DNA of 64,000 nucleotides from Bacteroidota bacterium (lineage in GTDB: Bacteria; Bacteroidota; Bacteroidia; Cytophagales; Cyclobacteriaceae), in the NCBI GenBank assembly GCA_024280115.1, contig JAJRQT010000230.1, positions 146-64,145 of the forward strand, given 5' to 3'. The position numbers and the translations under genes are program-made. Within the stretch, counting starts at the first letter, position 1; every line of letters starts with the position of its first letter. Below, one piece after another: positions 19,566 through 40,864 of the stretch. The notes beneath the pieces were generated by a model. That model did no database searches and was not told the origin of the DNA. It worked only from the letters and a program-made list of their open reading frames with translations.

Positions 19566-20528
19566 TTAATAAAACTCATATTCTGTAATAAAATGTATTC
19601 TTTCATCAGTCTTTTCTGCAACCCAGGATTCTGTTTTGATCAAGCCATTCTCATAATATTCAAACTCAATTGACCGTATCCCCGAGATTTGATTTCCGTG
19701 GTCATCGTATTTGTACGAAATTTCCAGTTCAAAAATCTCCTCCTCTTCAGAAAATGCATATTTATTGATCAGATGGCCTGCGGAATCATATTCATATTTA
19801 TAGTGATAATTATTGTGTGGAGCTGACAGATCAATCGTTTTCTCCTCTTCAATCCTATTCTCGGAATTGTATTTGAAACTGGTGGTTCTAACCATTTTCA
19901 AGTCCTTTCCATAACTCCTGGTCCTTTTTGCAATATTTCCAAGCGAATCATATTTATAACTTATTGCATAATTATGATTAAAAATCCTGCTTTCCGGTGA
20001 GGTGCTTTTTTCAGAGAGGAGATGGTCATTTTCATATTTATATATGATTGTCTGATTTGGACCGACTGAATCTGGTAGGTTTAAGCCGGTAAAGGTATAA
20101 AGCAGCTTTTCACTCAATTTACCCTGGTTATTATAGAAATACAATATTTTTTCATTTAAAGGCTTGTCTCCAAATGATTGAATATAATCTTCATCTCGTT
20201 TAAAAAGATTTAAGATCTTTTGGATTTTTAATTCTTCAACTAGTTGGCCGTTTTCATTGTATTGAAAAGTTGAGGTATGGCTATATGAGACATCATCCCA
20301 TAGAGAAAGCAAGTATTTTTTCATCAATCTTCCATCCTGGCTTATTTCCTTTTTTAAAACCAATTTTCTGTTGGTAGTTGAAGCATCAGCAATTGAGTAA
20401 TGGTATGTAGAAACCGTTTTTACACTCAAAGCTTTCAATTTTTCATCGCTACTCTGTATAGGTTCAATCTGAGCAAAAAGGTCAATATATGGCCAAGTAA
20501 TAAGGATAAAGTAAATAATTTTTCTCAT
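19566..20528 (-). CDS. Secreted YD/RHS-repeat-like protein
   Basis: Signal peptide 'IIYFILITWPYIDLFAQ'. Repeated YxYDxxG units ('YKYDSLGNIAKRT', 'YEYDSAGHLINKY', 'YKYDDHGNQISG', 'YNENGQLVEE'). Confidence 0.65.
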   Translation of the reverse strand: MRKIIYFILITWPYIDLFAQIEPIQSSDEKLKALSVKTVSTYHYSIADASTTNRKLVLKKEISQDGRLMKKYLLSLWDDVSYSHTSTFQYNENGQLVEELKIQKILNLFKRDEDYIQSFGDKPLNEKILYFYNNQGKLSEKLLYTFTGLNLPDSVGPNQTIIYKYENDHLLSEKSTSPESRIFNHNYAISYKYDSLGNIAKRTRSYGKDLKMVRTTSFKYNSENRIEEEKTIDLSAPHNNYHYKYEYDSAGHLINKYAFSEEEEIFELEISYKYDDHGNQISGIRSIEFEYYENGLIKTESWVAEKTDERIHFITEYEFY

Positions 20529-23040: not shown

Positions 23041-23940
23041 TCAGCTACGAGGATGAAATTCCTGGATGATCTGCTTCAAATATTCCCTGTCTAGATGTGT
23101 ATAAATTTCTGTAGTTGTAATAGATTCATGTCCCAGCATTTCCTGAACGGCCCTCAGGTCTGCTCCACCTTCTACCAGGTGAGTTGCAAAGGAATGCCGG
23201 AATGTATGAGGGCTAACAGTTTTTTCAATTCCAGTTGCTTTTACCAAATCTTTAATAATTATAAAAACCATGACCCTGGAAAGACTCCTGCCTCTGCGGT
23301 TTAAGAATACATAGTTTTCAAAACCCGATTGAACTTTTTTATGACACCTGATTTCTTCGATATAAATTTTAAGATATTTTGAAGCCGAATTTCCGAAAGG
23401 CACCAAACGTTCTTTATTCCCTTTACCGATAATTCTCAAAAATCCAATATCAAAATAAATATGATTCAATTTCAATTCGATCAATTCTGAAACCCGTAAG
23501 CCAGAACTGTATAAAACTTCCAGCATTGCCCTGTTTCTTCCTCCTTCGGGTGTTGACAGGTCAATGGCCTCAAGCATCTTTTCAATTTCTACTATATTGA
23601 GCACATCTGGTAGCTTTCTACCAAGCTTAGGGGCATCGATAAGTGCAGATGGATTATCAGTCAGAACTTCTTCATATTCCAAAAATTTGTAGAAAGATTT
23701 AATACCTGAAAGTATTCGCGACTGACTGTAGGCCGACATTCCGATTTCTCCAATCTCCTGTAGAAAATCCTGGATCGTTTCCGTAGTGACTTTTGTTGGC
23801 CCGGTGGGAATATTGGAGTTCTCAACAAACTGTTTTAGCTTTGCGACATCTCTTACATAGGCTTGAATAGAATTGTCGGAAAGAGATCTTTCGAGTCTTA
23901 GATAATTGGCAAATTGACGTATGAATATTTCCCAATTCAT
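23041..23940 (-). CDS. xerD: Site-specific tyrosine recombinase XerD
   Basis: 'SGLRVSEL' (Arg), 'HTFRHSFATHLVEGGADLRAVQEMLGHESITTTEIYTHL' (H-R-H-Y block). 299 aa. Divergent from aroQ, as is typical in Bacteroidota. Confidence 0.85.
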   Translation of the reverse strand: MNWEIFIRQFANYLRLERSLSDNSIQAYVRDVAKLKQFVENSNIPTGPTKVTTETIQDFLQEIGEIGMSAYSQSRILSGIKSFYKFLEYEEVLTDNPSALIDAPKLGRKLPDVLNIVEIEKMLEAIDLSTPEGGRNRAMLEVLYSSGLRVSELIELKLNHIYFDIGFLRIIGKGNKERLVPFGNSASKYLKIYIEEIRCHKKVQSGFENYVFLNRRGRSLSRVMVFIIIKDLVKATGIEKTVSPHTFRHSFATHLVEGGADLRAVQEMLGHESITTTEIYTHLDREYLKQIIQEFHPRS

Positions 23941-24971: not shown

Positions 24972-25442
24972 ATGGTAATTATTTATACAGACGGCGCGTC
25001 AAAAGGAAATCCTGGCCCGGGCGGATATGGCACGGTTTTGAAATACGGGCAACATCGAAAAGAATTGAGTGAGGGATTTCGCAAAACCACAAATAACCGG
25101 ATGGAATTATTGGCTGTTATCAAAGGGCTGGAAGCTTTGACGAAAGATGGTCTTGACGTCACTATTTATTCGGATTCAAAATATGTAGTGGATTCAGTAG
25201 AAAAGGGTTGGCTATGGGGCTGGGTAAAAAAAGGATTTAAAAATAAAAAAAATCCTGATCTCTGGAAGCGGTTCATTCCTGCATATAAAAGGCAAAAGGT
25301 AAAATTTAAATGGGTGAAAGGCCATGCTGGTAATCCTGAAAACGAACGGTGTGACCAACTGGCTGTCAATAGTTCAAGAGGACCAGGCCTGCAAATCGAC
25401 CATGGTTTCGAGCAACAGAGCAACGATAATTCTTTATTCTAA
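24972..25442 (+). CDS. rnhA: Ribonuclease HI
   Basis: 'IYTDGASKGNPGPGGYG', 'TNNRMELLAVI', 'IYSDSKYV' and 'KWVKGHAGNPENERCDQLA'. Confidence 0.9.
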   Translation: MVIIYTDGASKGNPGPGGYGTVLKYGQHRKELSEGFRKTTNNRMELLAVIKGLEALTKDGLDVTIYSDSKYVVDSVEKGWLWGWVKKGFKNKKNPDLWKRFIPAYKRQKVKFKWVKGHAGNPENERCDQLAVNSSRGPGLQIDHGFEQQSNDNSLF

Positions 25443-25443
25443 A

Positions 25444-26154
25444 TTGGCTAACGATTATTTTAAATTCAAAAAATTTACTATTTGGCAAGATCGATGTGCC
25501 ATGAAAGTAACCACGTTAGCATGTATTCAGGGCGCATGGTTGCCTGATTGTACGCCAAATAGAATTTTAGATATTGGTTCTGGTACGGGTATTTTATCAT
25601 TAATGGCGGCCCAAAAGACGGATGCCGAAATAGATGCTGTAGAAATTGAGGAAGCTGCTTTCTCTCAGCTAAAAGAAAATGTTTCTTTAAGTCCATGGTC
25701 AGGAAGGATAAATTGTTTCCATAATGATATCTCAGATTTTGCAGATCAGAATAGCAATGATTACGAACTCATTATTTCCAATCCGCCATTCTATCAAAAT
25801 CAGCTAAAATCCCCAAATAGTCGTATCAATAGTGCACGTCATGATTCAAGGTTGACACTAATAGAATTAGTGGATATTTCTTCAAAACATATAAAAGAGG
25901 AAGGTTTCATTTCAATATTACTGCCAGTCCATGAAACGAAAGAATTAATACAGTTTGCCCGGGAAAAATCTATTTTCCTTACAGATCAATTAGTGATATC
26001 AGATACCGCATCAAAAGATCCAATAGCTATAATTTCTATTTTATCAAAAAATCCTTCCAATCAGAAATTCAATATACTTGTGATTAAAAATGACGATGGT
26101 TCATATTCATCAGATTTTTCAGCATTACTCGCCCCTTATTACCTGAATTTATGA
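25444..26154 (+). CDS. trmN6: tRNA1(Val) (adenine37-N6)-methyltransferase (YfiC/TrmN6-like)
   Basis: 'FKFKKFTIWQDRCAMKV', 'ILDIGSGTGILSL' (SAM motif I) and 'IISNPPFY' (motif IV). The start is placed at the in-frame TTG at 25444, just after the rnhA stop. The ATG at 25324 would overlap rnhA by 119 nt. Confidence 0.7.
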   Translation: MANDYFKFKKFTIWQDRCAMKVTTLACIQGAWLPDCTPNRILDIGSGTGILSLMAAQKTDAEIDAVEIEEAAFSQLKENVSLSPWSGRINCFHNDISDFADQNSNDYELIISNPPFYQNQLKSPNSRINSARHDSRLTLIELVDISSKHIKEEGFISILLPVHETKELIQFAREKSIFLTDQLVISDTASKDPIAIISILSKNPSNQKFNILVIKNDDGSYSSDFSALLAPYYLNL

Positions 26155-26470: not shown

Positions 26471-27295
26471 ATGCAGGAGATTCATATTGTAGATATTAGA
26501 AAGCTTACAGAGATTATCAAATCCAAATATGGGTATGATTTCACAAATTATGCCATCTCCTCTTTAAAAAGACGGATTATAAGGATATTGGAACTCTACA
26601 AGTTTAAAAGTGTAGATGCGCTTGGTAAAAGGATTAGTGAAGACCCCGTATTTTTTGAAGAATTTATTTCTGAAATAACAGTAAACGTTACCGAAATGTT
26701 CCGAGATCCATCTTTTTGGAGGATTCTCCGGGACAAAATACTTCCAAACATACTACTCAACAATAAGAGGATTCGGATATGGCATGCAGGGTGCTCCTCT
26801 GGTGAAGAAGTGTATTCTATGGCGATTTTATTGAAGGAAATGGGGATTCTCGAAAATTCCAAAATAATTGCCACCGATATTGACGACCAGATATTGAAGC
26901 GGGCAAAAAGTGGTGTTTACACCGTTAAAAACATGGAATTGAACGAAAAAAACTATGTAAGATTTAGAGGTGAGAATGAATTAAATAGGTACTTCAAAAT
27001 TAAAAATGGGCTCACATACATGGATAAATCACTTGTGAAGGATGTTTCTTATCGCAAGCAGGACCTTGTCAAAGGTGGTGTGTTCAACAAGTTTGATATT
27101 GTATTGTGTAGAAATGTGATGATTTATTTCAATCAAAACTTACAGAACGATGTATTGAAAAAACTCCATGAAAGCATATTCAAATATGGGTATTTGGCTA
27201 TTGGGTCTAAGGAATCATTGATTTGGAGTGAAATTGCTAACAAGTTTATTGTAGCAAATAACGAAGAAAAAATTTATAAAAAGATAAAAGAGTAA
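26471..27295 (+). CDS. cheR: CheR-type protein-glutamate O-methyltransferase
   Basis: 'ITVNVTEMFRDP', 'RIWHAGCSSGEEVYSMAILL' and 'FDIVLCRNVMIYF'. 274 aa. Confidence 0.85.
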   Translation: MQEIHIVDIRKLTEIIKSKYGYDFTNYAISSLKRRIIRILELYKFKSVDALGKRISEDPVFFEEFISEITVNVTEMFRDPSFWRILRDKILPNILLNNKRIRIWHAGCSSGEEVYSMAILLKEMGILENSKIIATDIDDQILKRAKSGVYTVKNMELNEKNYVRFRGENELNRYFKIKNGLTYMDKSLVKDVSYRKQDLVKGGVFNKFDIVLCRNVMIYFNQNLQNDVLKKLHESIFKYGYLAIGSKESLIWSEIANKFIVANNEEKIYKKIKE

Positions 27296-27318
27296 GCGCT
27301 GATAGCAAGTTGCAATAG

Positions 27319-27912
27319 ATGATATTTCAAGGACTACATACTAAATTCAAAGCTATCGTAATTGGAGGCTCAGCTGGAAGTTTTCAGGGCATTACCAGAA
27401 TTCTGTCTCGGGTACCTGAAGATTTTCCTTTGCCGATCATATTGTGCTTGCACAGATTAAAGCACGTTCGCAATGGGTTTATGGAAGCTTTATCAATAAA
27501 AAGTATAAAAAATGTAGTTGAGCCGTATGACAAAGAATCGATTAAACCTGGAAAGGTGTATCTGGCGCCGGCAAACTATCATTTATCAATAGAGCTTGGA
27601 CATTATTTTAGTTTGTCAACCGAAGAAATGGTAAATAATTCGAGACCATCCATCGATATCACACTGGAAACAGGCGCATATACATATAAAAATAAATTGA
27701 TAGGCATTTTGCTATCCGGAGCGAACAAGGATGGTGCAATGGGCATGAAAAATATTAAAGATAGTGGAGGATTTACCGTTGTTCAGGACCCCAGGGAATG
27801 TATGATTAATACAATGCCATCTGCAGCTTTAGAAATGGCTGAAATCGATTATACGTTGAGCATTGATAATATCATAGAGTTATTTTTTGAAATACATAAA
27901 CTGTATAAATAA
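27319..27912 (+). CDS. cheB: CheB-type methylesterase catalytic domain, no receiver domain
   Basis: 'VIGGSAGSFQGITRIL..PEDFPLPIILCLHR' and 'LLSGANKDGAMGMKNIKDSGGFTVVQDP' supply the Ser/His/Asp context. Only 197 aa, so there is no room for a REC domain. Confidence 0.8.
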   Translation: MIFQGLHTKFKAIVIGGSAGSFQGITRILSRVPEDFPLPIILCLHRLKHVRNGFMEALSIKSIKNVVEPYDKESIKPGKVYLAPANYHLSIELGHYFSLSTEEMVNNSRPSIDITLETGAYTYKNKLIGILLSGANKDGAMGMKNIKDSGGFTVVQDPRECMINTMPSAALEMAEIDYTLSIDNIIELFFEIHKLYK

Positions 27913-27915
27913 TTT

Positions 27916-28782
27916 ATGAAATCGTTTTACAACAAGCTAAATGTAACCATCGCAATATCCTTTGTGTTAGGTATGCTGTTTACTGCATTTAACCTTTACA
28001 ATTTACCGGCAGAGCTGAAAAAGATTTCAAGCAAAATAGATTTACTTGTAATAAAAGAATTATCACCTGTATTAAATCAGACTTACCTGATCGTTGGAGT
28101 CACATTGATTTTAGGCCTTGGGGCCATCTTCCTGGCACTCTATCTTTTAAATATTAATAAAACATCTGAGAAAATTGTTTACATCGAAAAAACCGAATCT
28201 CAGAAACAAGAGGAAGACAAGGAAGAGGAAAAAGTTAAAAATGAAGATTTTAACAAGCGCGTTAAAGAGGTGAGAGGGGATATTAAAAAAGCTAAGGATA
28301 AGAAGTCCCGTTATGAGAAGGTGCTGTCAAATCTGTGCATGAAATTAGAGGCCAGTCAGGGCATAATGTATGAGGTGAGCAAAGAAAAAAATAAGAGATT
28401 TTTAAAGCTGCTCGCAACTTTTGCATACAATCTTCCTGACAGTGGAACTATTACCTATGAATTTGGCGAAGGCCTTGCCGGCCAGGTGGCGAAGGAAGGG
28501 AAGAAGATCAATATCAATGATGTTCCGAAAGGCTATATAACCATTGTTTCAGGATTGGGGGCATCTTCACCAAATCACCTGGCGATTTTACCAATAAAAC
28601 AAGGAAATGAGGTAGTTGCTGTAGTTGAGATTGCCTCATTCAAGGAAATTTCGTCCGATGATGAAAAGCTCATAGGTGCAGCTTTAAAACTCGAAGAAGA
28701 ATATCAGGATTTAGAGAGGAAAGCACTTGAAAATACTGAAAAAAGTAAGTTGTCAAAAAACAAGAAGAAACTAGATGTTTAA
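27916..28782 (+). CDS. Membrane-anchored GAF-domain protein
   Basis: Two N-terminal TM helices, a Lys/Glu-rich linker, and a GAF-like C-terminus ('GEGLAGQVAKEGKKININD', 'VVAVVEIASFKE') paralogous to the GAF in the next gene. Its stop overlaps the next start (ATGTTTAA). Confidence 0.7.
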   Translation: MKSFYNKLNVTIAISFVLGMLFTAFNLYNLPAELKKISSKIDLLVIKELSPVLNQTYLIVGVTLILGLGAIFLALYLLNINKTSEKIVYIEKTESQKQEEDKEEEKVKNEDFNKRVKEVRGDIKKAKDKKSRYEKVLSNLCMKLEASQGIMYEVSKEKNKRFLKLLATFAYNLPDSGTITYEFGEGLAGQVAKEGKKININDVPKGYITIVSGLGASSPNHLAILPIKQGNEVVAVVEIASFKEISSDDEKLIGAALKLEEEYQDLERKALENTEKSKLSKNKKKLDV

Positions 28783-31700
28783 GAATATTAGCATAAGAGG
28801 TAAGTTAACAACCCTGATTCTATTTCTTGTAGTTGTTACAATTTGCACAGCGGGATATATATCATATTCCATCAGGAAAAATATGTTGCAGGAGAAATAT
28901 CTTCACAATCTCAGCGCTCTTGTAGATGTAAAAACGAGTAAGATCCAGACTTTTATATCTCAGGCAAAGTCTGAAATAAACTTAATTTCAAATCTTGAAG
29001 TTTTTCAGTTGATTGGAAATGTAAGCGAAGAAAACGATTCTGTGGAAATGGACATGGGTGAATCGAACATGTCGCTTGAAGATGAACCTAAGGACTTAAC
29101 AGAAGCAGAAAATACTTTAAGAAGTATTCAAAAATCTACCGGAGTAGTAAAGATTATCATAACTGACCAAAATGGTGAAATCATTTTAAACACCAATTCA
29201 GGAGAATCATTAAACATCAAACAGGAAATAAAAACGATTGACAACGATTTCATCACAAATGCACAGACTGGAACATCTTTTAGTCATATATATAAGGTTG
29301 ACGAAAATTATTTGATTTCAGTAGGTGCGCCAATTGGCAGTATAGAAACAGGTAATACCCTATGCTTCATAATCTTTAATATCAATTCCATTTACGAAGA
29401 TTTGGCACACGATATGGGATTGGGCGAATCAGTTGAGGTGATAGTTGCGCAAAAAAGGCAAGATATCGCACTGTTTTTAAACCCACTGAAATCTGATGAA
29501 AATTCTGCACTTAACCGGGCGGTTACTATCGGGAGCAAGGAAGGAGTTGCCATTCAACTGGCTGTAGAGGGCAATGAAGGGATGGGTCATTCCGTGGATT
29601 ACAGAAATGTTGAAACATTATCTAAGTGGAGTTTTATACCCGAAGTTAACTGGGGAATTGAAGCAAAAATTGATCAGGCAGAAATAAATCAACAAGCATT
29701 TATTGTGGTGAGAAAATTTGCATTATGGGGCGGATTGATTTTGGTATTTACCATCATGATCGCTTTCCTGTTTTCTCAATATTTCATCAATCCTCTGCTA
29801 TCCTTAAAAAATTCATTGACCTCAATTTCAAAAGGTGTATTGCCTGAGAAAATAGATAAAAAATATAACGATGAGGTTGGTCAGATGGCTAAAACAACCA
29901 ATGACCTGGCACAAGCTTTAAAACGAACTGCCACCTTTGCGGAGAAAATAGGTAAAGGTGACTTGAAAGCAGACTTCAAACCATCAAGTGATGGAGATAT
30001 GCTTGGTAATGCATTGATTGAAATGCGCAGCAGCCTCATCGAAACTGAACAACAGGATACAGAGCGCAACTGGATTGTTACCGGTGTAGCTGAAATAAGT
30101 GAGATATTAAGATCTCATGATACAATTGATGAGTTGGGCGATGCAGTCATCGCTTACATCACAGAAAAAATTGATGCAATTCAGGGAGCGTTTTATGTAG
30201 TCAATGATGACAACCCGGCTGACAAGTTTATCGAGATGAAGTCTGCTTATGCCTACCATAAGAAAAAATATATGCAGGCTAATTTTAAGTTTGCGGAAGG
30301 GTTAGTAGGGCAAGCAGCAGTAGAAAAGGATTACATACTCCGGACAGAAATTCCAGATGAATATGTATCTGTAACTTCTGGTATATTGGGTGATCAGCGT
30401 CCCACCGGATTACTGATAACTCCACTCATCACTGAAGAAAAAGTATATGGCGTTGTTGAATTTGCCGGATTCCATAGATTTACGGAGAGCCAAATCAAAT
30501 TTGTTCGTGAAATCAGCCTGATCCTTGCCAGAACCATTTTCAACATTAAAGTTAATGAACGTACCAGAAATCTTCTTGAGGAATCTCAGAAAATGAGTAA
30601 CGAACTTCAGGAGCAGCAGGAGGTATTGAGACAAAATGCTGAGGAAATGGCCTCTACCCAGGAAGAGCTGAAAAGAACAAATCAGCGGCTTGAGGATCAG
30701 ATCGAAGAGGTAAACCGCACTCAGAACAGGATGCAATTGTTGCTGGAAAATGCCTCTGAGGTTATTTCTATCTATGAAAAGGAAGGAATTATCAGGTATA
30801 TAAGCCCATCGGTTGAGCGTATTCTCGGATACTCACAAAATGACCTGATTGGCATCAATGATAAAGTTCATGTAAATCCGGAAGGTATAGCAAATTTTGA
30901 ACATATATTCGAGCAGGTGATAGCAAATCCATTTGAATCTGTCACGGTTCAGTATGAATATATGAAGAAAGATGGTGATGCTATATGGCTGGAGGCAACA
31001 GCTACCAATATGCTGTCTGACCCGGCAATTCAGGGAATTATTTTGAATAGCAGGGATATTACGGAAAGACGACGAGCTGAGCGAGAGGAACGGATGAAAT
31101 CAAAAATGCAGGCATTATCTGAAAATTCGCCAGATTTAATTACAAGATTTACAAATGACGGAGAAGTATTCTATATAAATCCAATGATCGAGAGCTATAC
31201 CGGTCATAAGCCTGGTGATCTGCTCAATAGGAAGCTTGTAGAAATTGATGTTGAGGATGTAATAAAACAGGAATGGATTCAACTTCTCGAACAGGTTGAA
31301 TCAGAAAATGAAAAAGTTGCCAAAGAAATGGATTTTCCTTCCATACTCGGCAACCGTGTTATGCAGGTAAATGCCATTCCGGAATATGATGAGGAAAGTA
31401 ATTTAGAATCCGTGTTGGTTGTTTCGCACGATATTACCGATCGAAAACAAATAGAGCTTGAGATTCAATCCAAAAATAGAAAGATCACCGAAAGTATAAA
31501 TTATGCTCAAAGAATTCAGAAAGCTATCCTGCCAAGCAATGAAGTGATTCGCCAGGTACTTCCGGAGTCATTCATATTGTACAAGGCAAGAGATGTGGTG
31601 AGCGGGGACTTTCCATGGTTTATAAAGGTCGGAGACATCATGTATTTTGCAGCAGTTGATTGTACAGGACACGGTGTTCCGGGCGCTCTGATATCACTCA

Positions 31701-32236
31701 TTGGTTACTTCCTGCTCAATGATATTGTGAAAGGAAGAAAGATGAGCGATCCCGGGGAAATACTGGATCAACTAGACAGAAGTGTTACCAAAACACTGAG
31801 GCAAGACTCAGACGACTCAAAAACAAAAGACGGAATGGATATTGCCCTTTGCAAAATTGATTTGAAAAATAATCAGGTTTCATATGCCGGGGCACACAGA
31901 CCATTGTATTTCATGAATCAAGGAGAACTTGTAGAAATCAAGGGTAATAAATTCCCGATTGGGGGTGGTATTTACCGAAATCAAACCAAATTCACCAGTA
32001 CCGTCTTAGATGTGAAAAAGGGTGATTCTATCTTTTTCTGTTCTGATGGATTCCCAGATCAATTTGGTGGTCCTGACAACAGAAAATATGGGCCAAAGCG
32101 ATTGCGAGAGGCAATTGTGAAATATCATAAAAGTTCCATGACTGAAATATATAAGAAAATTGATGACGAATGGACTGAATGGAAAGGAGATCAGAAGCAG
32201 ACAGATGATGTCTTGCTGATTGGAGTAAGGTTTTAA
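28775..32236 (+). CDS. Sensor phosphatase: TM-periplasmic (Cache-like)-TM-HAMP-GAF-coiled coil-PAS-PAS-PP2C/SpoIIE (SiaA/RsbU-like)
   Basis: TM1 is 'LILFLVVVTICTAGYI', followed by a ~290-aa extracytoplasmic region and TM2 'WGGLILVFTIMIAFLF'. The HAMP domain contains 'DEVGQMAKTTNDLAQAL'. The GAF domain contains 'AEGLVGQAAVEKDYI' and 'VYGVVEFAGFHRF'. Two PAS domains follow ('RYISPSVERILGYSQNDLIG', 'FYINPMIESYTGHKPGDLL'). The PP2C domain has 'AVDCTGHGVPGALISL', 'FCSDGFPDQFGG' and 'TDDVLLIGVRF'. Confidence 0.85.
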   Translation: MFKNISIRGKLTTLILFLVVVTICTAGYISYSIRKNMLQEKYLHNLSALVDVKTSKIQTFISQAKSEINLISNLEVFQLIGNVSEENDSVEMDMGESNMSLEDEPKDLTEAENTLRSIQKSTGVVKIIITDQNGEIILNTNSGESLNIKQEIKTIDNDFITNAQTGTSFSHIYKVDENYLISVGAPIGSIETGNTLCFIIFNINSIYEDLAHDMGLGESVEVIVAQKRQDIALFLNPLKSDENSALNRAVTIGSKEGVAIQLAVEGNEGMGHSVDYRNVETLSKWSFIPEVNWGIEAKIDQAEINQQAFIVVRKFALWGGLILVFTIMIAFLFSQYFINPLLSLKNSLTSISKGVLPEKIDKKYNDEVGQMAKTTNDLAQALKRTATFAEKIGKGDLKADFKPSSDGDMLGNALIEMRSSLIETEQQDTERNWIVTGVAEISEILRSHDTIDELGDAVIAYITEKIDAIQGAFYVVNDDNPADKFIEMKSAYAYHKKKYMQANFKFAEGLVGQAAVEKDYILRTEIPDEYVSVTSGILGDQRPTGLLITPLITEEKVYGVVEFAGFHRFTESQIKFVREISLILARTIFNIKVNERTRNLLEESQKMSNELQEQQEVLRQNAEEMASTQEELKRTNQRLEDQIEEVNRTQNRMQLLLENASEVISIYEKEGIIRYISPSVERILGYSQNDLIGINDKVHVNPEGIANFEHIFEQVIANPFESVTVQYEYMKKDGDAIWLEATATNMLSDPAIQGIILNSRDITERRRAEREERMKSKMQALSENSPDLITRFTNDGEVFYINPMIESYTGHKPGDLLNRKLVEIDVEDVIKQEWIQLLEQVESENEKVAKEMDFPSILGNRVMQVNAIPEYDEESNLESVLVVSHDITDRKQIELEIQSKNRKITESINYAQRIQKAILPSNEVIRQVLPESFILYKARDVVSGDFPWFIKVGDIMYFAAVDCTGHGVPGALISLIGYFLLNDIVKGRKMSDPGEILDQLDRSVTKTLRQDSDDSKTKDGMDIALCKIDLKNNQVSYAGAHRPLYFMNQGELVEIKGNKFPIGGGIYRNQTKFTSTVLDVKKGDSIFFCSDGFPDQFGGPDNRKYGPKRLREAIVKYHKSSMTEIYKKIDDEWTEWKGDQKQTDDVLLIGVRF

Positions 32237-32260
32237 TGAAGATAGTAGTGCATAAGAGTT

Positions 32261-32268
32261 TAGTTTTG
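32261..32268 (+). promoter_or_regulatory. Possible -7 promoter motif (TAGTTTTG) ahead of the SiaB-like gene
   Basis: Matches TAnnTTTG, 60 nt upstream of ATG 32329. No well-spaced -33 TTG was seen. Confidence 0.3.
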
Positions 32269-32328
32269 AATTAATTACATTTTATAATTACATAATATAT
32301 AATATCGAAATAAGGTATTAATAATTAA

Positions 32329-32883
32329 ATGAGTACGATGAAATATATTTATGACATGCATCAAATGATGCTCAAGAACAACATTATTCTGGTTTACGAG
32401 GGTGAGTTCACCCAGGAAATCACTAAGTCGGTGTTGGCCATGGCCGAGAGGAACATGGATTCGATTGGCGAGGAATCCGGAATAAAAAGAAAAGTGTTTA
32501 ACGTAATGGTGGAATGTCTCCAGAACATTGTAAAGCATGGAGAAGATTATGTATCTGCTGATTTACAAATTAACACCGCAATTTTTATGATAGGGAAACA
32601 ACAGAATTCTTATATCATTACAACCGGCAATCCAATGAAAAATGAACTTGTCGATGGCCTGAAAAGTAAGCTTGACAAAATTAACGGTCTTGATAAAGAT
32701 GGTTTAAAAGCGCTTTATAAAGATATAATTAAAGGCGGATCTGGGTTGACAGATAAAGGTGGCGCCGGACTCGGTTTTGTTGATATGGCAAGGAAATCAG
32801 GCCAAAAACTTGAATATGGATTTGAGCCATTAGGAAACGGCCATACATTCTTCTCTTTGAAAACAACAGTTCCAAGAGGATAA
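32329..32883 (+). CDS. SiaB-family protein kinase (GHKL anti-sigma-kinase-like fold)
   Basis: 'NIILVYEGEFTQEI', 'KRKVFNVMVECLQNIVKHG' (N-box-like) and 'KGGAGLGFVDMARKSG' (G-box). 184 aa. Confidence 0.75.
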   Translation: MSTMKYIYDMHQMMLKNNIILVYEGEFTQEITKSVLAMAERNMDSIGEESGIKRKVFNVMVECLQNIVKHGEDYVSADLQINTAIFMIGKQQNSYIITTGNPMKNELVDGLKSKLDKINGLDKDGLKALYKDIIKGGSGLTDKGGAGLGFVDMARKSGQKLEYGFEPLGNGHTFFSLKTTVPRG

Positions 32884-32914
32884 ATCAAACGTTAAACTGA
32901 AAAGACTTAGTAAA

Positions 32915-33277
32915 ATGGAAATAATTAATTTAGAAGGAACAGAGGATACTCCAAAAATAATTCTGGATAAAACCAACAAAATTTTTGAAATTTCAGGTAG
33001 ATCTTTACCCGAGGATTCAGCAGAATTTTATCAGCCTGTCCTGGAATGGCTGAATAAATATACTAAAGAGGCATTACCCGAAACCATATTCGATTTTAAA
33101 CTCGAATACTTTAATACAGCTTCGTCAAAATTAATTCTCGATGTATTGACTGTTTTAGAAGACATCGAAAACATTAAAGTACACTGGTACTTCTACGAAG
33201 ATGATGAAGATATGGAAGAAGCCGGAGAAGAATTTTCTGAGCTGGTGGACGTAGAGTTTGAATTAAAACCCTACTAG
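32915..33277 (+). CDS. SiaC-family (DUF1987) regulatory phosphoprotein
   Basis: 'EGTEDTPKIILDKTNKIFEISGRSLPEDSAEFYQPVLEWL' and 'LEYFNTASSKLILDVL', with Thr at residue 68. 120 aa with an acidic C-terminus. Confidence 0.75.
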   Translation: MEIINLEGTEDTPKIILDKTNKIFEISGRSLPEDSAEFYQPVLEWLNKYTKEALPETIFDFKLEYFNTASSKLILDVLTVLEDIENIKVHWYFYEDDEDMEEAGEEFSELVDVEFELKPY

Positions 33278-33387
33278 CGAGATATTCGATCAATAAACAC
33301 CAATCTAACCAGACTGAATTTTTGCTTAGTGGTCTGTAAATGATCATTGAGTGGTGTTTTTTGCATAATGAATCTGAATATTGAAAA

Positions 33388-36300
33388 ATGAGTGAAGAAA
33401 TTCTAAAAGCTTTAACCCAGCTTTTTGCAATCATTACGAAGCAGGATGGAGGCGTTACTGAAAAGGAAAGAAATTTCGTAATCAGTATTTTCAAGGAAGA
33501 CCTTGACCATGACTCTATAAAAGAGTATCTGGCTTTGTATGACGATTTTGTTGGATATGGTAAAGAAGTAGAAACTACTAAGAAAAAGAAGCTGACATCT
33601 GTTAGGGATTCAGTAAAAACTCTTGCCATTTGCCGTAAAATCAATAAAACTCTTACTCAAAAACAAAAAATAGTTGTACTTATAAAATTGCTTGAGCTCG
33701 TAAGCTCTGACCGCAATTTTACTTCTCAACGAATGGAAATCATAAATACGGTTTCCGAAGTATTTAACATCGCCAAAGAAGAATATTCTCTGATTGAGGC
33801 ATTTATCTTCCATATTACAGAAGAGGCGCTCGATATAGAAGACCTCATCTATGCAAGAAAGAAATCTGAAATAAATTTTGAAAAGGCAAGGTCAATTAAT
33901 GTATCGATCACCGGTGAATTGCTTTTTTTGAAAATAAAAAGCGTGGACATGTATTTTGTCCGTTACCTGGGAGATGAAGAAATTCTATTAAATGGTTTTG
34001 CCATAAAACCCGGGCTGACCAATCAATTTTCACATGGCAGTACCATTAAAACTCCAAGTGGAGATGCTCTTTATTACAGCGACCTTATCAGGCATTTTCT
34101 TTCTGAAGTCGAGACGGTAAATCTTTCATTCATTGCAAAAGACCTGACGAAAAAATTTCCCAATGGTGCTATTGGGCTTAGAGATATAAATATTTCAGAA
34201 GGCCCTGGGAAACTCATAGGAATTATGGGGGCAAGCGGCGCGGGTAAAACCACCTTGCTCAATGTGCTTTCAGGAATTGACAAACCTACATCTGGTAGTT
34301 TGAAAATCAATGGAGTGGATTTGTTTTCTAATGAAACAGAAAAAATAAAGGGAGTTATAGGATATATTTCCCAGGATGATCTGCTTATTGAAGAGCTCAC
34401 CGTTTATGAAAACCTTTATTACAATGCTAAGCTTTGCTTCGCTGATTTAAATGAGGAGGAGTTGGACAAACGGGTTATGGCGACACTTTCAAACCTTGGA
34501 TTGGATCAGAGGAAAGATTTGAGGGTTGGAAGCGTGCTGGATAAAACCATAAGCGGAGGACAAAGGAAAAGATTAAATATTGCGTTGGAGCTCATCAGGG
34601 AGCCTGCTGTAATGTTTGTCGATGAACCTACCTCAGGACTTTCGTCAAGAGACTCTGAAAATGTAATTGACCTGCTCAAGGAACTTTCCCTAAAGGGCAA
34701 GCTGATATTTGTGGTAATCCACCAGCCCTCGTCAGATATCTACAAGATGTTCGATAAAATGATGATCATGGATGTTGGTGGTTATCCTGTTTATTATGGT
34801 CCGCCTGTAGAAGCTGTTACTTATTTTAAGTCAGCCAGTAACCAGGTAGGGGCAGAAAAAGGTCAATGCCAAACTTGCGGAAACGTAAATCCTGAGCAGA
34901 TATTTAATATCATCGAAGCCAAAGTGGTCGATGAATATGGAGAGTTTACAAACAAAAGAAAGGTCACTCCCATTCAGTGGAAAACGCTCTACAATGAGAA
35001 TTTCGAACAAGCAGAGGTTAAAGAAATAGAAAAGCTTCCTCCGAGGTCTTTAAAAATTCCATCCCGGATAAAACAGTCCATAATATTCGCCAAAAGAGAT
35101 TTGCTTTCCAAGTTGAGCAACAAGCAATACATGTTAATAAATTTGCTCGAAGCTCCGTTGCTGGCGTTTATTTTAGCCTTTTTGATAAGATATAAAAGCG
35201 GGCCTGATGGTCAGTCTTATATATTCAGGTTCAATGAAAATATTCCGGTGTACATCATGATGGCGATTATTATTGCATTGTTCATGGGGCTCACTGTAAG
35301 TGCTGAAGAGATTATAAAGGACAGAAAAATTCTGAAAAGAGAATCTTTTCTGAATTTGAGTCGGAGCAGTTATTTAATTTCAAAAGTACTCATCCTGTTT
35401 GGGCTTTCAGCCATACAAACCATCATTTTCACAATTATTGGGAACCTTATCCTGGAAATTCATGGGATGACCCTCACCTACTGGCTGGTGTTATTTTCCA
35501 TTTCGTGCACAGCAAACGTGATCGGTTTGAATATCTCTTCTGCTTTCAATTCTGCAGTTACGGTTTATATCCTGATTCCTCTTTTAATTATCCCACAAAT
35601 GGTGCTCAGTGGGCTTCTTTTCAGTTTTGACAAACTAAACGAAGTCATAAGCACTAAAGGGAAAGTACCAATAATTGCAGATTTAATGGCGTCAAGGTGG
35701 GGTTATGAGGGAGTTGCAGTGAGGCATTTCATGGAAAATGAATACGAATCAAAATTTTATGAATTTGAAAAGGCAGAGGTTCAGGCTAATTTTAAATCTT
35801 CCTATTGGATAAAAGAACTAAAAAGCCGAATCAACTATGCTGTTGACAACATTAACTCCGATGATCAAGAAAGGCTTCAAAAAGTGAATAGATATTTGGC
35901 CCTTGTAAAATCAGAACTCATTGAAGAAAACGGCTCAAATATGGTTCGGGATATTGATCTGAATATCGCCCTGGATCCGGAAAAGTTCAATGTAGAAATT
36001 GGCAAAGCAATCATGGGGTATCTCGATGTCCTTTTTAAAAAATACCTCAACCAGTATAATTTGGCTGTTCAAAAAAAGGAAAAGCTCATTTATGGTTTTG
36101 AAAACACATTCAAATATGATTTGAGTGAAATGAAAGATAATAGTTATAGTGAAAGTCTTGCAGATTTAGTGAGAAACCTTACAGTAAAAGACCGGGTCAT
36201 TGAATTTAAAGGAAGGCTTTTACAAATAATAGATCCTGTATTTAACGAACCAAAAAATCCAAAGCATTTGCTGGACTACAGGGCTCACTTCTTTGCACCG

Positions 36301-36468
36301 AAAAAGTACTTTCTTGGCTATTATTTTGATACATATTGGTTTAATCTGTCGGTAATATGGGGGATGACCTTACTACTCTATTTGGCTCTATATTATGAAT
36401 GGCTTAGGAAAATAATCGAGTCATTTTCGACTATAGGAAAGAAATTTAATAAGAAGGATTCCAATTAA
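33388..36468 (+). CDS. TerB-like N-terminal domain fused to an ABCG-type (ATPase then ABC-2 permease) transporter
   Basis: 'ITKQDGGVTEKERNFVISIF' is TerB-like. Walker A is 'GASGAGKTTLLNVLSG', the signature is 'ISGGQRKRLNIALEL', Walker B is 'VMFVDEPTSGLS' and the H-loop is 'VIHQPS'. Six C-terminal TM helices and a long helical tail follow. Confidence 0.8.
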   Translation: MSEEILKALTQLFAIITKQDGGVTEKERNFVISIFKEDLDHDSIKEYLALYDDFVGYGKEVETTKKKKLTSVRDSVKTLAICRKINKTLTQKQKIVVLIKLLELVSSDRNFTSQRMEIINTVSEVFNIAKEEYSLIEAFIFHITEEALDIEDLIYARKKSEINFEKARSINVSITGELLFLKIKSVDMYFVRYLGDEEILLNGFAIKPGLTNQFSHGSTIKTPSGDALYYSDLIRHFLSEVETVNLSFIAKDLTKKFPNGAIGLRDINISEGPGKLIGIMGASGAGKTTLLNVLSGIDKPTSGSLKINGVDLFSNETEKIKGVIGYISQDDLLIEELTVYENLYYNAKLCFADLNEEELDKRVMATLSNLGLDQRKDLRVGSVLDKTISGGQRKRLNIALELIREPAVMFVDEPTSGLSSRDSENVIDLLKELSLKGKLIFVVIHQPSSDIYKMFDKMMIMDVGGYPVYYGPPVEAVTYFKSASNQVGAEKGQCQTCGNVNPEQIFNIIEAKVVDEYGEFTNKRKVTPIQWKTLYNENFEQAEVKEIEKLPPRSLKIPSRIKQSIIFAKRDLLSKLSNKQYMLINLLEAPLLAFILAFLIRYKSGPDGQSYIFRFNENIPVYIMMAIIIALFMGLTVSAEEIIKDRKILKRESFLNLSRSSYLISKVLILFGLSAIQTIIFTIIGNLILEIHGMTLTYWLVLFSISCTANVIGLNISSAFNSAVTVYILIPLLIIPQMVLSGLLFSFDKLNEVISTKGKVPIIADLMASRWGYEGVAVRHFMENEYESKFYEFEKAEVQANFKSSYWIKELKSRINYAVDNINSDDQERLQKVNRYLALVKSELIEENGSNMVRDIDLNIALDPEKFNVEIGKAIMGYLDVLFKKYLNQYNLAVQKKEKLIYGFENTFKYDLSEMKDNSYSESLADLVRNLTVKDRVIEFKGRLLQIIDPVFNEPKNPKHLLDYRAHFFAPKKYFLGYYFDTYWFNLSVIWGMTLLLYLALYYEWLRKIIESFSTIGKKFNKKDSN

Positions 36469-36561
36469 ATTATAGGTGTAAGAAAGATCATGTAATTGCT
36501 TGATTTTCAGTTTTATTATACTGTTGAGATTTATATTTTTGTTTTGAATAAATACCATGTC

Positions 36562-37458
36562 ATGAGAAAAATTATTCCTTTATTTTTAGTTCTAATCGTC
36601 TTTGCATGCGGCCCGGGGAAAAAATCCGAAGAGCAGGTATTCTTAGACAGTTTAAACAATCTCACTTTGGATGGACCGATGATCTCTGAGGAAGTTATTT
36701 CAGAAATTATCCAGCAGGTACCATCTCCATTGGAGATCTCTTATTTATTGAAAGATGCAGGTTCTCAGTATGATTTTAACATATTGAATTCACCCGACAA
36801 TGTTTCTAATTACAACAGCAACTTCAGCAAAGCATTAAACCTCGGCATCTATGGGACTGACCTTGGATTTGCTAATATTTATGAAGAGAATCAGGATGCT
36901 ATTCTTTATTTAAATTCTATTAAAGGATTGGCCAATGACTTGAGTATTGGGCAATTTTTTGATTTTGGAACTATTGCAAGGTTAGCTACTAACAGTAAAA
37001 ACCTTGATTCTTTATTGTTGATTACAACCCAAAATTTCAATAGCATCAACGGTTATCTTCAGGAAAATCAGCGTTCTAACTTGAGTGTGCTGATACTAAC
37101 CGGAGGATGGCTCGAAGCACTCCATATCACATGCCAGGTAGCAGAGAAAAACCCTGGAAATGAGAAGCTGATAGAAAAAATCGGTGAGCAGAAAATAATA
37201 CTGGATAACATAAAACTGATGTTGGGTTTTTATACTAAAGATCCATACATCGCTGATCTGCATAAAAATATACTAAACCTCGAAAAGGCCTATGAGCAAA
37301 TCGAGATTATTTATACATATGCCGAACCAACGATGGAAGAGGTGAATGGAATTTTAGTAAATAAAGATAACAGTACCACCACCATCAACATTACAGATGA
37401 AAATGTAAAAACGATCAGGCAGGAGGTAATAAACATCAGGAAAAAGATAATAAGCTAA
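36562..37458 (+). CDS. Lipoprotein, unknown function
   Basis: The start is moved to ATG 36562, giving 'MRKIIPLFLVLIVFACGPGKK' (lipobox). The rest looks helical. Confidence 0.6.
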   Translation: MRKIIPLFLVLIVFACGPGKKSEEQVFLDSLNNLTLDGPMISEEVISEIIQQVPSPLEISYLLKDAGSQYDFNILNSPDNVSNYNSNFSKALNLGIYGTDLGFANIYEENQDAILYLNSIKGLANDLSIGQFFDFGTIARLATNSKNLDSLLLITTQNFNSINGYLQENQRSNLSVLILTGGWLEALHITCQVAEKNPGNEKLIEKIGEQKIILDNIKLMLGFYTKDPYIADLHKNILNLEKAYEQIEIIYTYAEPTMEEVNGILVNKDNSTTTINITDENVKTIRQEVINIRKKIIS

Positions 37459-37473: not shown

Positions 37474-37908
37474 ATGAGACAGGTAATAATTATCATAGGA
37501 ATATCCATAATTGCATTTGTATTTACCATCAGCTCAGCAAATGCTCAATGTGCTGCTGATGCCCAGGCTAACGCATGCATCGGTAAGCTCCAAGATGGAT
37601 TTACGTTTTTAAAGACATTTAAAGTTGATGGTCAGGGTGGAGCAAAGGCTAAAATAGAATACTCCTATGTTTTTAGTAAAGACACTCAGTATTTTCTGAA
37701 TATTTGCAGTGACGGAGCAGATACTGACGGTATTGTTGTTACAATGTATGATTCCAAAAGACAGATGGTTTCTACAAATTACAATAAGGGGAAATTTTAT
37801 CCCGGATTAATTTATCCTTGTAATGCCACGGGAATTTACTATGTAACCTTTACCTTCAAGGATTCGCAAAATCATTGCGGAGGCAGCGTCCTTGGTTTTA
37901 AGAGATAA
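37474..37908 (+). CDS. Small secreted Cys-containing beta-rich protein, unknown function
   Basis: Signal peptide 'IIIIGISIIAFVFTISSANAQ'. 144 aa. Starts 16 nt after the preceding gene. Confidence 0.55.
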   Translation: MRQVIIIIGISIIAFVFTISSANAQCAADAQANACIGKLQDGFTFLKTFKVDGQGGAKAKIEYSYVFSKDTQYFLNICSDGADTDGIVVTMYDSKRQMVSTNYNKGKFYPGLIYPCNATGIYYVTFTFKDSQNHCGGSVLGFKR

Positions 37909-39348: not shown

Positions 39349-40086
39349 TTAGTCAGAAAATTGCAGATACAAGGTTACAACATTCATTTTTAGAGATTCA
39401 ATTCCATCACTAAACCCGCTTTCGTCCTCCCTCAGTAAATTGAGTAACCCCTTAGAAAACCTGATTTCAGGACTGAATTTGAATAGCGGATAATACATAT
39501 CTATCCCTAACCCCAGCTCCATATTCAGATTAAAATCTTTTGTGAGCAGCCGGTTATTAGATTGTTCTTTTCTCTTTTTTCCAGAAACCTCAAATCCGGG
39601 AGCCACACCTCCAACAAAATATACTCGAAAATTTTTATGCCTTTCAGATTTATACTTGAATAAAATTGGAATTTCCACAAAAGTGGATTCGATAAGCTGC
39701 TTGGTTGTTGTTCCATCTGTGTAATTATAATCCACGGGGAATTCATAAAAAGAAACCTTTGGAAGGATGCGAATATTAAACTGTTCTTCAATTCGAAAAT
39801 CGGTGATAAAACCGAGAGAAAATCCAAAGGCATTGGCAGGCATTATAGAGTGAACACTGTCCATTGCAGGAGTCACGAATTTATCTGAATATTTCAGTTG
39901 ATAGCTTGAGGTGTGCAAACCAATACTAAATCCATAGTGCAACCACTTCGAGTCAGAAAATGGCAGGTTATATTGAAATGCTTCCTGGCCCATGGAAGAC
40001 AACGGTATAAAAAAAGCAAGAACTAAGATTCTTCCTATTTTATTCCGGTATATATAGAGCAAATTCCAAATGTTAATGGGATGCAT
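39349..40086 (-). CDS. porT: PorT/SprT-family outer-membrane beta-barrel protein (T9SS-associated), putative
   Basis: Signal peptide, then alternating beta-strand pattern ('LHYGFSIGLHTSSYQLKY', 'FGFSLGFITDFRI', 'VYFVGGVAPGFEV', 'LGLGIDMYYPLFKFSPEIRF'). It lies directly downstream of ubiE, an arrangement I recall as common in Bacteroidota. The annotated start overlaps ubiE by 52 nt; an internal TTG may be the real start. Confidence 0.55.
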   Translation of the reverse strand: MHPINIWNLLYIYRNKIGRILVLAFFIPLSSMGQEAFQYNLPFSDSKWLHYGFSIGLHTSSYQLKYSDKFVTPAMDSVHSIMPANAFGFSLGFITDFRIEEQFNIRILPKVSFYEFPVDYNYTDGTTTKQLIESTFVEIPILFKYKSERHKNFRVYFVGGVAPGFEVSGKKRKEQSNNRLLTKDFNLNMELGLGIDMYYPLFKFSPEIRFSKGLLNLLREDESGFSDGIESLKMNVVTLYLQFSD

Positions 40087-40769: not shown

Positions 40770-40801
40770 TGTGGAATGATGATTGATTTTTAAACAAACC
40801 G

Positions 40802-40809
40802 CAAATATA
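40802..40809 (-). promoter_or_regulatory. Bacteroidota -7 motif (TATATTTG on the minus strand) upstream of ubiE
   Basis: The plus strand reads CAAATATA, which is TAnnTTTG on the minus strand. It lies 33 nt upstream of start 40769. Confidence 0.4.
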
Positions 40810-40864
40810 CATAACGCTGTGGCAATAAGAAGAAATACCTCTGGATGAAATTAATTCGAAAATA

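Follow-up and report, generated by a model that had tools for sequence, protein, structure and literature searches.

A gene cluster conserved in Cytophagales sets CheR and a receiver-less CheB beside a PP2C sensor phosphatase and a SiaB/SiaC-like switch: a candidate for methylation-tuned signalling without CheA

Background

Reversible methylation of glutamates is how textbooks explain sensory adaptation, and to our knowledge it is almost confined to the chemoreceptors that control CheA. The Wsp system comprises the methyl-accepting chemotaxis protein (MCP) WspA, the CheR homologue WspC, the CheB homologue WspF, the CheA homologue WspE and the output protein WspR. Here we describe a gene cluster on a 64,000-nucleotide stretch of DNA from a member of the Cyclobacteriaceae (Bacteroidota; assembly GCA_024280115.1, contig JAJRQT010000230.1, positions 146 to 64,145 of the forward strand; hereafter the window), which encodes a CheR-type methyltransferase, a CheB methylesterase, a membrane sensor phosphatase of the PP2C type, a SiaB-like kinase and a SiaC-like phosphoprotein. 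As in Wsp-type pathways, CheR/CheB-type methylation would be tied here to a non-motility output, and a signalling protein carries the methylation consensus; unlike those pathways, the window cluster has no MCP signalling domain, CheA, CheW or response regulator, its CheB lacks a receiver domain, and the output PP2C is fused to the putative methyl acceptor.

The SiaABCD system of Pseudomonas aeruginosa resembles the cluster in its membrane HAMP-PP2C protein, its SiaB kinase, its SiaC with T68 and its gene order (PMC7647112), and the SiaC T68 peptide is phosphorylated by SiaB and dephosphorylated by SiaA (PMC7647112). In contrast to SiaABCD, the window encodes no SiaD or other GGDEF protein, a TerB/FHA-like ABC exporter stands at the place of SiaD, and the sensor is far larger (with a Cache-like, a GAF and two PAS domains) and is preceded by CheR, CheB and a GAF protein with two transmembrane (TM) segments. 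The che2 cluster of Vibrio vulnificus and the che3 cluster of V. cholerae (F7 class) combine cheR and cheB with genes for a PP2C phosphatase and a phosphoprotein partner of the RsbU/RsbV type (PMC10107281). Those clusters, and a further locus described below (L166), use a true MCP and a kinase-driven PP2C with a receiver domain (REC-PP2C), the kinase partners being CheA and CheW in Vibrio and a small HisKA kinase in L166, whereas the window sensor is fused to its PP2C and is accompanied by neither a kinase for phosphotransfer nor a receiver. In RsbT/RsbU and related PPM phosphatases, helical or coiled-coil linkers join sensor domains to a dimeric PP2C, and control of bacterial PPM phosphatases through such linkers is established (PMC12143880); control there is exerted by binding of partner proteins rather than by covalent modification, and methylation of the linker is undescribed there. 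The component families of the window cluster are all known; what sets the cluster apart is the absence of MCP, CheA and CheW together with the fusion of a putative methyl acceptor to the phosphatase. No description of CheR and CheB with a PP2C/SiaBC module was found in the literature, nor of the sequence motif reported below.

Results and discussion

Organization of the cluster

The conserved block lies on the forward strand and contains the following features.

26471-27295 (+): CheR-type protein-glutamate O-methyltransferase, 274 aa (Pfam CheR 150 bits, CheR_N 38 bits)
27319-27912 (+): CheB methylesterase, catalytic domain only, 197 aa (Pfam CheB_methylest 161 bits)
27916-28782 (+): GAF protein with two TM segments (TM-GAF), 288 aa (GAF_2 E=4e-10 and TM scan)
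28775-32236 (+): membrane sensor phosphatase, 1153 aa (Pfam HAMP, GAF_2, two PAS, SpoIIE/PP2C)
32329-32883 (+): SiaB-family protein kinase, 184 aa, Pfam DUF6272 (NCBIfam 176 bits)
32915-33277 (+): SiaC-family phosphoprotein, 120 aa (Pfam SiaC 133 bits)
33322-33354 (+): hairpin followed by a T-run 3' of siaC, possible attenuating terminator (consensus scan only)
33388-36468 (+): TerB, FHA-like module and ABCG-type ATPase/permease, 1026 aa (Pfam TerB, ABC_tran, ABC2_membrane)
36496-37458 (+), likely start ATG at 36562: predicted lipoprotein (lipobox-like VFAC at the end of the signal peptide)
37474-37908 (+): small secreted Cys-rich protein, 144 aa (N-terminal signal-like sequence)

The first six of these genes had been recognized in a first-pass annotation made from the DNA letters alone, and listing of the open reading frames (ORFs) together with reading of the junctions reproduced their coordinates, spacing and overlap exactly. 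The cheR stop codon (TAA, 27293-27295) is separated by a 23-nt spacer from the cheB ATG at 27319; the cheB stop codon (TAA, 27910-27912) is followed by the TM-GAF ATG at 27916; and the TM-GAF stop overlaps the sensor start (ATGTTTAA at 28775-28782). Two proposals of that annotation need revision. Its boundary at 33277 is too early, for the conserved block runs to 37908, and its single transcript is putative only: gaps of 92 nt before siaB and 110 nt (with the hairpin) after siaC occur in the series, and promoter scans return chance levels (39 sigma-70-like sites versus 49 expected, 74 TAnnTTTG sites versus 88 expected) that provide no operon evidence. One TAnnTTTG site falls at 32261, between the sensor gene and siaB, and hairpin/T-run sites in the region are also near chance (11 versus 8.4 expected).

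The enzymes encoded by cheR and cheB look active and strongly constrained, as judged by the CheB catalytic triad, the CheR motifs for S-adenosylmethionine and mean column identities in ortholog alignments of 0.80 for CheR and 0.83 for CheB. CheR exceeds the Pfam cutoff of 27 bits with both of its domains (CheR_N 38.4 bits, CheR 149.7 bits) and aligns to Bacillus subtilis CheR (5ftw, E=8.5e-37) as well as to 1af7; in 79 orthologs, conservation of R78, ATDID (134-138) and CRNVMIYF (213-220) reaches 90% or more. The NCBIfam equivalog of the enteric chemotaxis enzyme (NF007902) scores 100 bits with it, short of the cutoff of 435. In CheB the methylesterase domain (161 bits, cutoff 24) spans residues 13-187 of 197, alignment to Thermotoga maritima CheB (3sft, E=1.9e-31) matches the triad S18, H45 and D138, which is at least 90% conserved, and the orthologs are all 195-204 aa long. 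The absence of a receiver, which the first-pass annotation had pointed out, is upheld: Pfam finds no Response_reg domain in the window CheB, so that the domain characteristic of canonical CheB is missing and the catalytic domain fills the protein.

Conservation with the PP2C module and a distinct CheR/CheB subfamily

The first-pass annotation had tied CheR and CheB functionally to the PP2C sensor and to the SiaB/SiaC pair, and had proposed comparative genomics as a check. A search of species-representative genomes with the window CheB yielded 158 relatives, and in the best 80, all of them Cytophagales or unclassified Bacteroidota, gene order was read by tblastn with the window proteins. Among these 80 genomes are members of Roseivirgaceae, Cyclobacteriaceae, Flammeovirgaceae, Chryseolinea, Ohtaekwangia, Rhodocytophaga, Nafulsella, Cesiribacter and Tunicatimonas; cultivable species with the cluster include Nafulsella turpanensis, Cesiribacter andamanensis, Chryseolinea lacunae and Rhodocytophaga aerolata. 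The order cheR, cheB, TM-GAF, sensor, siaB, siaC on one strand is kept in 80 of 80 loci, as far as each reaches, with matches to CheR and CheB in all 80, to TM-GAF in 79, to the sensor in 78, to the SiaB-like kinase in 70 and to the SiaC-like protein in 69. Downstream, the TerB/ABC exporter was found in 68 loci (directly after siaC in 68 of the 68 that reach that far, and also in distant clusters), the 320-aa lipoprotein ORF in 61 and the 144-aa secreted-protein ORF in 58. Nearly all of the missing genes coincide with contig or locus ends, the exceptions being the lipoprotein ORF in two full-length loci (L034, L045).

The same order extends to six distant Bacteroidota clusters that were reached via the exporter N-terminus or via the motif, outside the 80-genome scan, among them L118, L161, L162 (from a metagenome-assembled genome, MAG, labelled Bacteroidales), L165 and L167. 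The exporter N-terminus is 46-48% identical to that of the window in the four distant loci in which it was scored, and CheR is 37-43% and CheB 58-62% identical in the four in which these two were scored; the annotated distant clusters of this PP2C type contain no CheA, CheW or MCP signalling domain. Three clusters have two tandem cheR genes before the receiver-less cheB (L161 3234-4920, L165 3200-4923, L151 3313-4914). Within the window itself, a Pfam scan of all 52 ORFs of at least 100 aa found no CheA, CheW, CheY-type receiver, MCPsignal or GGDEF domain, in agreement with the first-pass statement that CheA, CheW, CheY and a canonical MCP are missing.

By comparison, identity of the window enzymes to those of canonical clusters is low: 26-29% for CheR, and about 25% for CheB when measured against the receiver-bearing CheB (REC-CheB) of L172 and L166. 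Because identity to canonical enzymes (about 25-29%) is so much lower than to distant PP2C-type enzymes (37-43% and 58-62%), the PP2C-linked CheR and CheB are, by this measure, a separate and co-inherited subfamily. A loss of synteny with the PP2C sensor in relatives, named at first pass as an outcome that would overturn the proposal, was not observed. Synteny and subfamily, together with the candidate acceptor site described next, strengthen the functional link proposed at first pass, and we consider it highly probable that CheR and CheB work with the PP2C/SiaB/SiaC module.

The sensor phosphatase and a candidate methylation motif

The sensor has TM segments at residues 5-33 and 307-342 and runs in the order TM segment, Cache-like periplasmic domain, TM segment, HAMP, GAF, coiled coil, PAS, PAS, PP2C. 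Its conservation was profiled over 67 full-length orthologs, and four of its parts bear on the argument.

28874-29692 (+): Cache-like periplasmic domain, aa 34-306 (dCache_1 E=2e-5, below the Pfam cutoff)
30527-30778 (+): coiled-coil linker from GAF to the first PAS, aa 585-668 (conservation, composition and 7-residue repeat)
30626-30679 (+): candidate methyl-accepting motif L-R-Q-N-A-E-E-M-x-A-T-Q-E-E-L-x-R-[ST], aa 618-635 (67 orthologs)
31643-32233 (+): PP2C/SpoIIE phosphatase domain, aa 957-1153 (Pfam SpoIIE E=2.6e-21)

Pfam confirms the HAMP, GAF, PAS and PP2C domains of the first-pass annotation; its Cache domain is only a subthreshold match in the window sensor (dCache_1 E=2e-5, 24.7 bits versus a cutoff of 45), and the ortholog in L164 carries a precomputed dCache_1 match. 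Conservation along the sensor is lowest in the periplasmic domain (column identity 0.14-0.53), which is absent from the shorter sensors (about 865 aa) of several distant clusters. The metal-binding motifs of the PP2C domain are at least 90% conserved: SGDF (D945), DCTGHG (D962), DGMD, SDG (D1091) and TDD (D1144/1145).

The linker is among the best-conserved segments of the sensor (column identity 0.84-0.90). Proline and glycine account for 6 of its 5628 residues across the orthologs, and a hydrophobic 7-residue repeat runs through L611, L618, M625, L632, L639, V646 and M653. The core of the motif within it is invariant or nearly so. Residues E623-E624-M-x-A627-T628 are invariant and agree with the published consensus for MCP methylation (PMC1079850), and a second pair, E630-E631, sits exactly one heptad (7 residues) past the first; E624 and E631 are the candidate sites. 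Against a background of 1241 ORFs (456,913 residues) from the window and the 80 loci, the pattern EExxA[ST] occurs 112 times, 100 of them within the double motif and 12 outside the motif genes, and a regular expression for the double motif finds only the sensor and a HAMP-GAF paralogue encoded upstream of cheR. With the sensor gene downstream and, in 34 loci, the paralogue gene upstream, cheR and cheB have motif-bearing genes beside them wherever they were encountered.

In a profile comparison with hhalign, the sensor linker falls on MCP methylation helix 2 (MH2) and the EE pairs match in register (probability 45%, P=2.3e-4); RQNA...EEM..T.EEL is paired with QQNA(aaa)EEMAa.aEEL of a Bacteroidota-type MCP alignment. 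The same comparison started from an alignment of transducer units gives a probability of 4.6% and a misregistered match. This profile similarity between the linker and MCPs is suggestive only. The TM-GAF protein was also considered as a methyl acceptor and was rejected for its lack of a conserved Glu-Glu or other acidic pair motif and its low conservation: with hydrophobic segments at residues 7-30 and 52-82 by TM scan, it is retained in 79 of the 80 loci at a mean column identity of 0.41, and its C-terminus is variable.

The SiaB/SiaC-like switch and its putative exporter output

The kinase and phosphoprotein assignments of the first-pass annotation are confirmed at the level of family. The SiaB-like protein scores 176.4 bits with the NCBIfam family SiaB_fam_kinase (NF038262, cutoff 85), aligns to P. 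aeruginosa SiaB (6kko_A, E=6.6e-13) and has a mean column identity of 0.75; with the SiaB equivalog (NF038264) it scores 83.5 bits, below the cutoff of 225. The SiaC-like protein scores 133.5 bits with PF09345 (cutoff 24.5) and 79.5 bits with the NCBIfam SiaC equivalog (cutoff 150), and its LEYFNTASSK aligns with LLYLNTSSIK of P. aeruginosa SiaC (6kko_C). The predicted phosphorylation site T68 (codon 33116-33118) matches the threonine of LLYLNTSSIK, and FKLEYFNTASSKLILD is invariant in 68 orthologs. The sensor scores 215 bits with the SiaA equivalog (NF038263, cutoff 700), its C-terminal PP2C region alone matching, and none of the 52 window ORFs encodes a SiaD-like GGDEF protein.

Rv1747 of Mycobacterium tuberculosis is an ABCG-like exporter with N-terminal FHA-type modules that is tied to Ser/Thr phosphorylation signalling. 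The exporter encoded after siaC differs from Rv1747 in having a single, apparently degenerate FHA-like fold, which follows a TerB domain (about residues 8-135) and in which the canonical Arg and His seem not to be conserved. An AlphaFold model of exporter residues 1-260 (33388-34167) has a predicted local distance difference test score of 83.8, and a Foldseek search of the PDB with its beta-sandwich (residues about 150-240) returned FHA domains for all of the top 50 matches. These matches are weak, with E between 5e-3 and 0.12, none at E<=0.001, and target-normalised template-modelling scores of about 0.16-0.59; Pfam finds no FHA domain in the exporter. Among the phosphopeptide-binding positions of FHA, which were assigned by eye rather than by structural superposition, only N202-G203 is invariant. 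The sandwich may be a degenerate FHA-like reader that ties the exporter to threonine phosphorylation. The predicted lipoprotein (MRKIIPLFLVLIVFAC), which has no family match, and the small secreted protein directly downstream of it are also encoded in L163, L164 and L165.

A model for the cluster

Taken together, these features suggest how the cluster could operate. The sensor would read a periplasmic signal via its Cache-like domain and cytoplasmic signals via GAF and the two PAS domains, and pass them along helical linkers to the C-terminal PP2C. The dedicated CheR would methylate glutamates in the coiled coil that joins GAF to PAS, with E624 and E631 as the likeliest sites, and the receiver-less CheB, presumably constitutively active, would strip the methyl groups; charge neutralisation could alter the packing or register of the coiled coil and thereby reset the phosphatase output, providing gain control or adaptation. 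PP2C would dephosphorylate T68 of the SiaC-like protein and the SiaB-like kinase would re-phosphorylate it, and the phosphorylation state of SiaC would set its binding partner, the likeliest target being the TerB/FHA-like ABCG exporter encoded next to it, together with the lipoprotein and the small secreted protein.

Gene content, catalytic residues, synteny, motif conservation and the distinctness of the CheR/CheB subfamily are direct observations on which this model builds; methylation, the direction of its effect, co-transcription and the exporter output are parts that we infer. In this specific form, a partner switch tuned by methylation independently of CheA, CheW and MCPs, we give the model an even chance of being correct.

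Several observations weigh against the model. Methylation of the sensor is itself an inferred step, as is co-transcription of the cluster. By sequence, the resemblance of the linker to MCPs is at the level of the motif only: BLASTP of the linker against a true MCP gives E=1.3; MCPsignal (PF00015) scores on the coiled coil with E=0.013 and 15.8 bits (cutoff 34.6), among generic coiled-coil matches; the full sensor has no MCPsignal match in Pfam; and phmmer with the linker against the PDB returns coiled-coil noise only. Interchange of E and Q, which is typical of methylation sites in MCPs, is weak, the first pair being EE in 98% and the second residue of the second pair E in 71%, D in 7% and Q in 7%; such interchange had been considered as a signature of deamidation by CheB, and it was too weak to be used as support. 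In some distant sensors the consensus Ala is replaced by Val or Leu. On the output side, the canonical phosphothreonine-binding Arg and His are absent from the FHA-like module (G176-E177 and S185..M188 stand at these places), and because they are apparently not conserved, a role of the exporter as reader of phospho-SiaC stays an idea. Most motif-bearing genes, moreover, lie apart from cheR and cheB, as set out below.

Motif-bearing proteins beyond the sensor and alternative substrates

The paralogue encoded upstream of cheR is a TM-HAMP-GAF-coiled-coil protein of about 520-970 aa (mostly 580-670) that carries EEEMRQNMEELQATQEEM. It adjoins cheR directly in 34 of the 80 loci and is absent from the window and its closest relatives, L001-L008. 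In the window, its position is occupied by a gene for a small class I methyltransferase (MTS/PrmA-like, 25324-26154), which is followed by a 316-nt AT-rich gap.

At a threshold of E<=1e-3, an exhaustive search with the 84-residue linker retrieved 740 representatives; many contain more than one copy of the motif, and as many as 9 stretches of one protein can match. The members of this motif family (P0121-P0270; L081-L160) have the architecture [4HB_MCP, dCache or TM]-HAMP-GAF-(motif-PAS)n, without an enzymatic output domain, and carry the motif as EELRQNxEELxATQEE. MCP genes are mostly scattered away from cheR and cheB. A metagenome scan with the motif alignment yielded 80 loci, of which seven contain cheR or cheB: in six, cheR lies directly downstream of the motif gene, followed in five of these by cheB, and the seventh (L144) has a weak CheB-like match only. 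The expectation that motif genes generally adjoin cheR and cheB was abandoned, since 73 of the 80 metagenome loci have neither gene, and the 34 loci that span 12 kb or more all lack both. The scattered motif could be a general signalling helix; the pattern is also that of MCP genes relative to cheR and cheB. Some motif genes lie near PP2C genes (L107, L126, L138) or near SiaC-like genes (L142, with three in tandem, and L149).

This family gives rise to the alternative that survives best, namely that CheR and CheB act chiefly on other motif proteins (the upstream paralogue and dispersed output-less transducers), which would behave as chemoreceptors that have no CheA and signal to the PP2C sensor via helical or PAS contacts, whether or not the sensor is methylated as well. 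The 740 representatives, several with multiple motif copies, their MCP-like N-termini (4HB_MCP, dCache, HAMP) without enzymatic output, the adjacency of the paralogue to cheR in the 34 genome loci and the six metagenome loci, and the motif genes found near PP2C or SiaC-like genes all fit this account. It is nevertheless unlikely: the window and L001-L008 lack the upstream paralogue, 64 kb of sequence contain no further motif gene, and the sensor's own motif is invariant.

Less probable still is that the motif is no more than a conserved signalling helix, with CheR and CheB acting on another product of the cluster (TM-GAF, SiaC, SiaB or the exporter's TerB domain) or on a protein encoded elsewhere. 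In favour of this account, the likeness to MCPs falls short statistically, E/Q toggling is weak, most motif genes have no neighbouring cheRB, and CheR has been reported to methylate PhoP, which is not an MCP (PMC8546571); on the other side, TM-GAF is poorly conserved (0.41), and the profile alignment puts the motif and the methylation helix of MCPs in register.

Canonical and intermediate che clusters

The first-pass annotation had further called the lineage, with PorT and a type IX secretion system (T9SS), non-flagellate. PorT and a protein with a T9SS sorting domain are indeed encoded in the window, but to conclude from lineage that Che systems are missing is unsafe, as complete che clusters occur in some Cytophagales, and a search with the MCP of L166 shows that true MCPs exist in this order. 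In Fulvivirga maritima (L170, CP089980.1) CheY, CheA, CheW, MCP and CheR are encoded together, with no CheB within 10 kb; the MCP there is split into three called ORFs and CheR into two (9212-11829), which may reflect frameshifts due either to decay or to assembly errors. A Cyclobacteriaceae MAG (L172, 7022-20609) encodes CheY, CheA, CheW, two MCPs, CheR, CheD, REC-CheB and CheX, and a second one (L171) has the same cluster, but with no CheB gene called. In the che clusters of the Cyclobacteriaceae-type MAGs L166, L171, L172 and L173, cheR and cheD are separated by a gene for a small HisKA/HATPase kinase of about 280-300 aa.

L166 (1-10018) joins elements of both types. Its first part encodes a PAS-PAS-MCPsignal protein, CheR, the small HisKA/HATPase kinase, CheD and REC-CheB, and it continues with a receiver protein, an unknown gene, REC-PP2C, a DUF6272 (SiaB-like) protein, SiaC and TerB-ABC; no CheA or CheW is present in the part of the contig seen. 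The methylation helix of its MCP reads AEEMAASAEEL, compared with AEEMASTQEEL in the sensor. A receiver on CheB is seen only in clusters with a kinase, such as L166, and not in those of the window type. The same SiaB/SiaC/ABC module is thus driven in L166 by a methylated MCP via phosphotransfer to REC-PP2C, and here by a PP2C-fused sensor.

A che cluster elsewhere that accounted for the window enzymes had been named at first pass as a finding that would overturn the proposed link; such clusters exist, but they do not account for these enzymes, because their own CheR and REC-CheB belong to a different subfamily (only about 25-29% identical). That CheR and CheB are ordinary enzymes of a canonical MCP/CheA/CheW system elsewhere, with their position beside the PP2C sensor incidental or a matter of cross-talk, is therefore very improbable: MCPs and CheA-CheW clusters do occur in F. 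maritima and the two Cyclobacteriaceae MAGs, and the F. maritima chromosome seems to encode a TerB-ABC homolog (P0282), but synteny with the PP2C module is universal across the 80 species and beyond, the canonical clusters have their own CheR (two of three examined also CheD and one of three REC-CheB) of a subfamily about 25% identical, and no other che genes occur among the window ORFs.

Other genes in the window

Upstream of the cluster, several ORFs without a family match (2230-7594) precede a gene pair for a 707-aa TPR protein and a CHAT-domain protein of the caspase-like protease family (7755-10879). Positions 10001-18000 have a G+C content of 0.39-0.42, compared with 0.31-0.36 elsewhere, and a strongly negative GC skew; a 1159-aa fusion of a GMC oxidoreductase and an alpha/beta-hydrolase (13000-16479) is encoded inside this stretch and an acyl-ACP-type desaturase (18203-19180) just past it. 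An RHS-repeat ORF (19566-20528) follows. A tyrosine recombinase (Phage_integrase with a SAM-like N-terminal domain, 23041-23940, minus strand), which may be a housekeeping enzyme of the Xer type, is encoded 2.5 kb upstream of cheR.

Just downstream of the cluster, the minus strand (39349-42910) encodes PorT/SprT (39349-40086, an equivalog match of 210 bits versus a cutoff of 125), a UbiE/MenG-type methyltransferase and a PD40/OmpA protein resembling PorE and CHU_0125. A polysaccharide biosynthesis locus within 44628-55446 encodes a flippase, a pyruvyl transferase, a UDP-GlcNAc 2-epimerase and glycosyltransferases, and is followed by a gene for a 1192-aa PKD protein with a T9SS sorting domain (51868-55446).

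Conclusions

The cluster is a compact, conserved system with named residues (E624 and E631 of the sensor, T68 of SiaC), which makes the hypothesis that methylation tunes its phosphatase directly testable. If methylation does act directly on the sensor phosphatase, the adaptation module of chemotaxis would be portable to Ser/Thr partner-switch signalling; the orphan CheR and CheB of gliding Bacteroidota, which have long been puzzling, would gain a substrate; and a function could be predicted for the large family of HAMP-GAF-PAS proteins that have no output domain. A more tentative extension, which we regard as possible but rather doubtful, is that the PP2C sensor and the HAMP-GAF-(EE-motif-PAS)n proteins form a Bacteroidota class of methyl-accepting transducers that are not MCPs, served by a dedicated CheR and receiver-less CheB. 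If such a class exists, gliding, non-flagellated bacteria would possess a form of adaptation, or memory, that is independent of CheA and CheW and converges on a phosphatase/kinase/phosphoprotein switch controlling an FHA-like ABC exporter.

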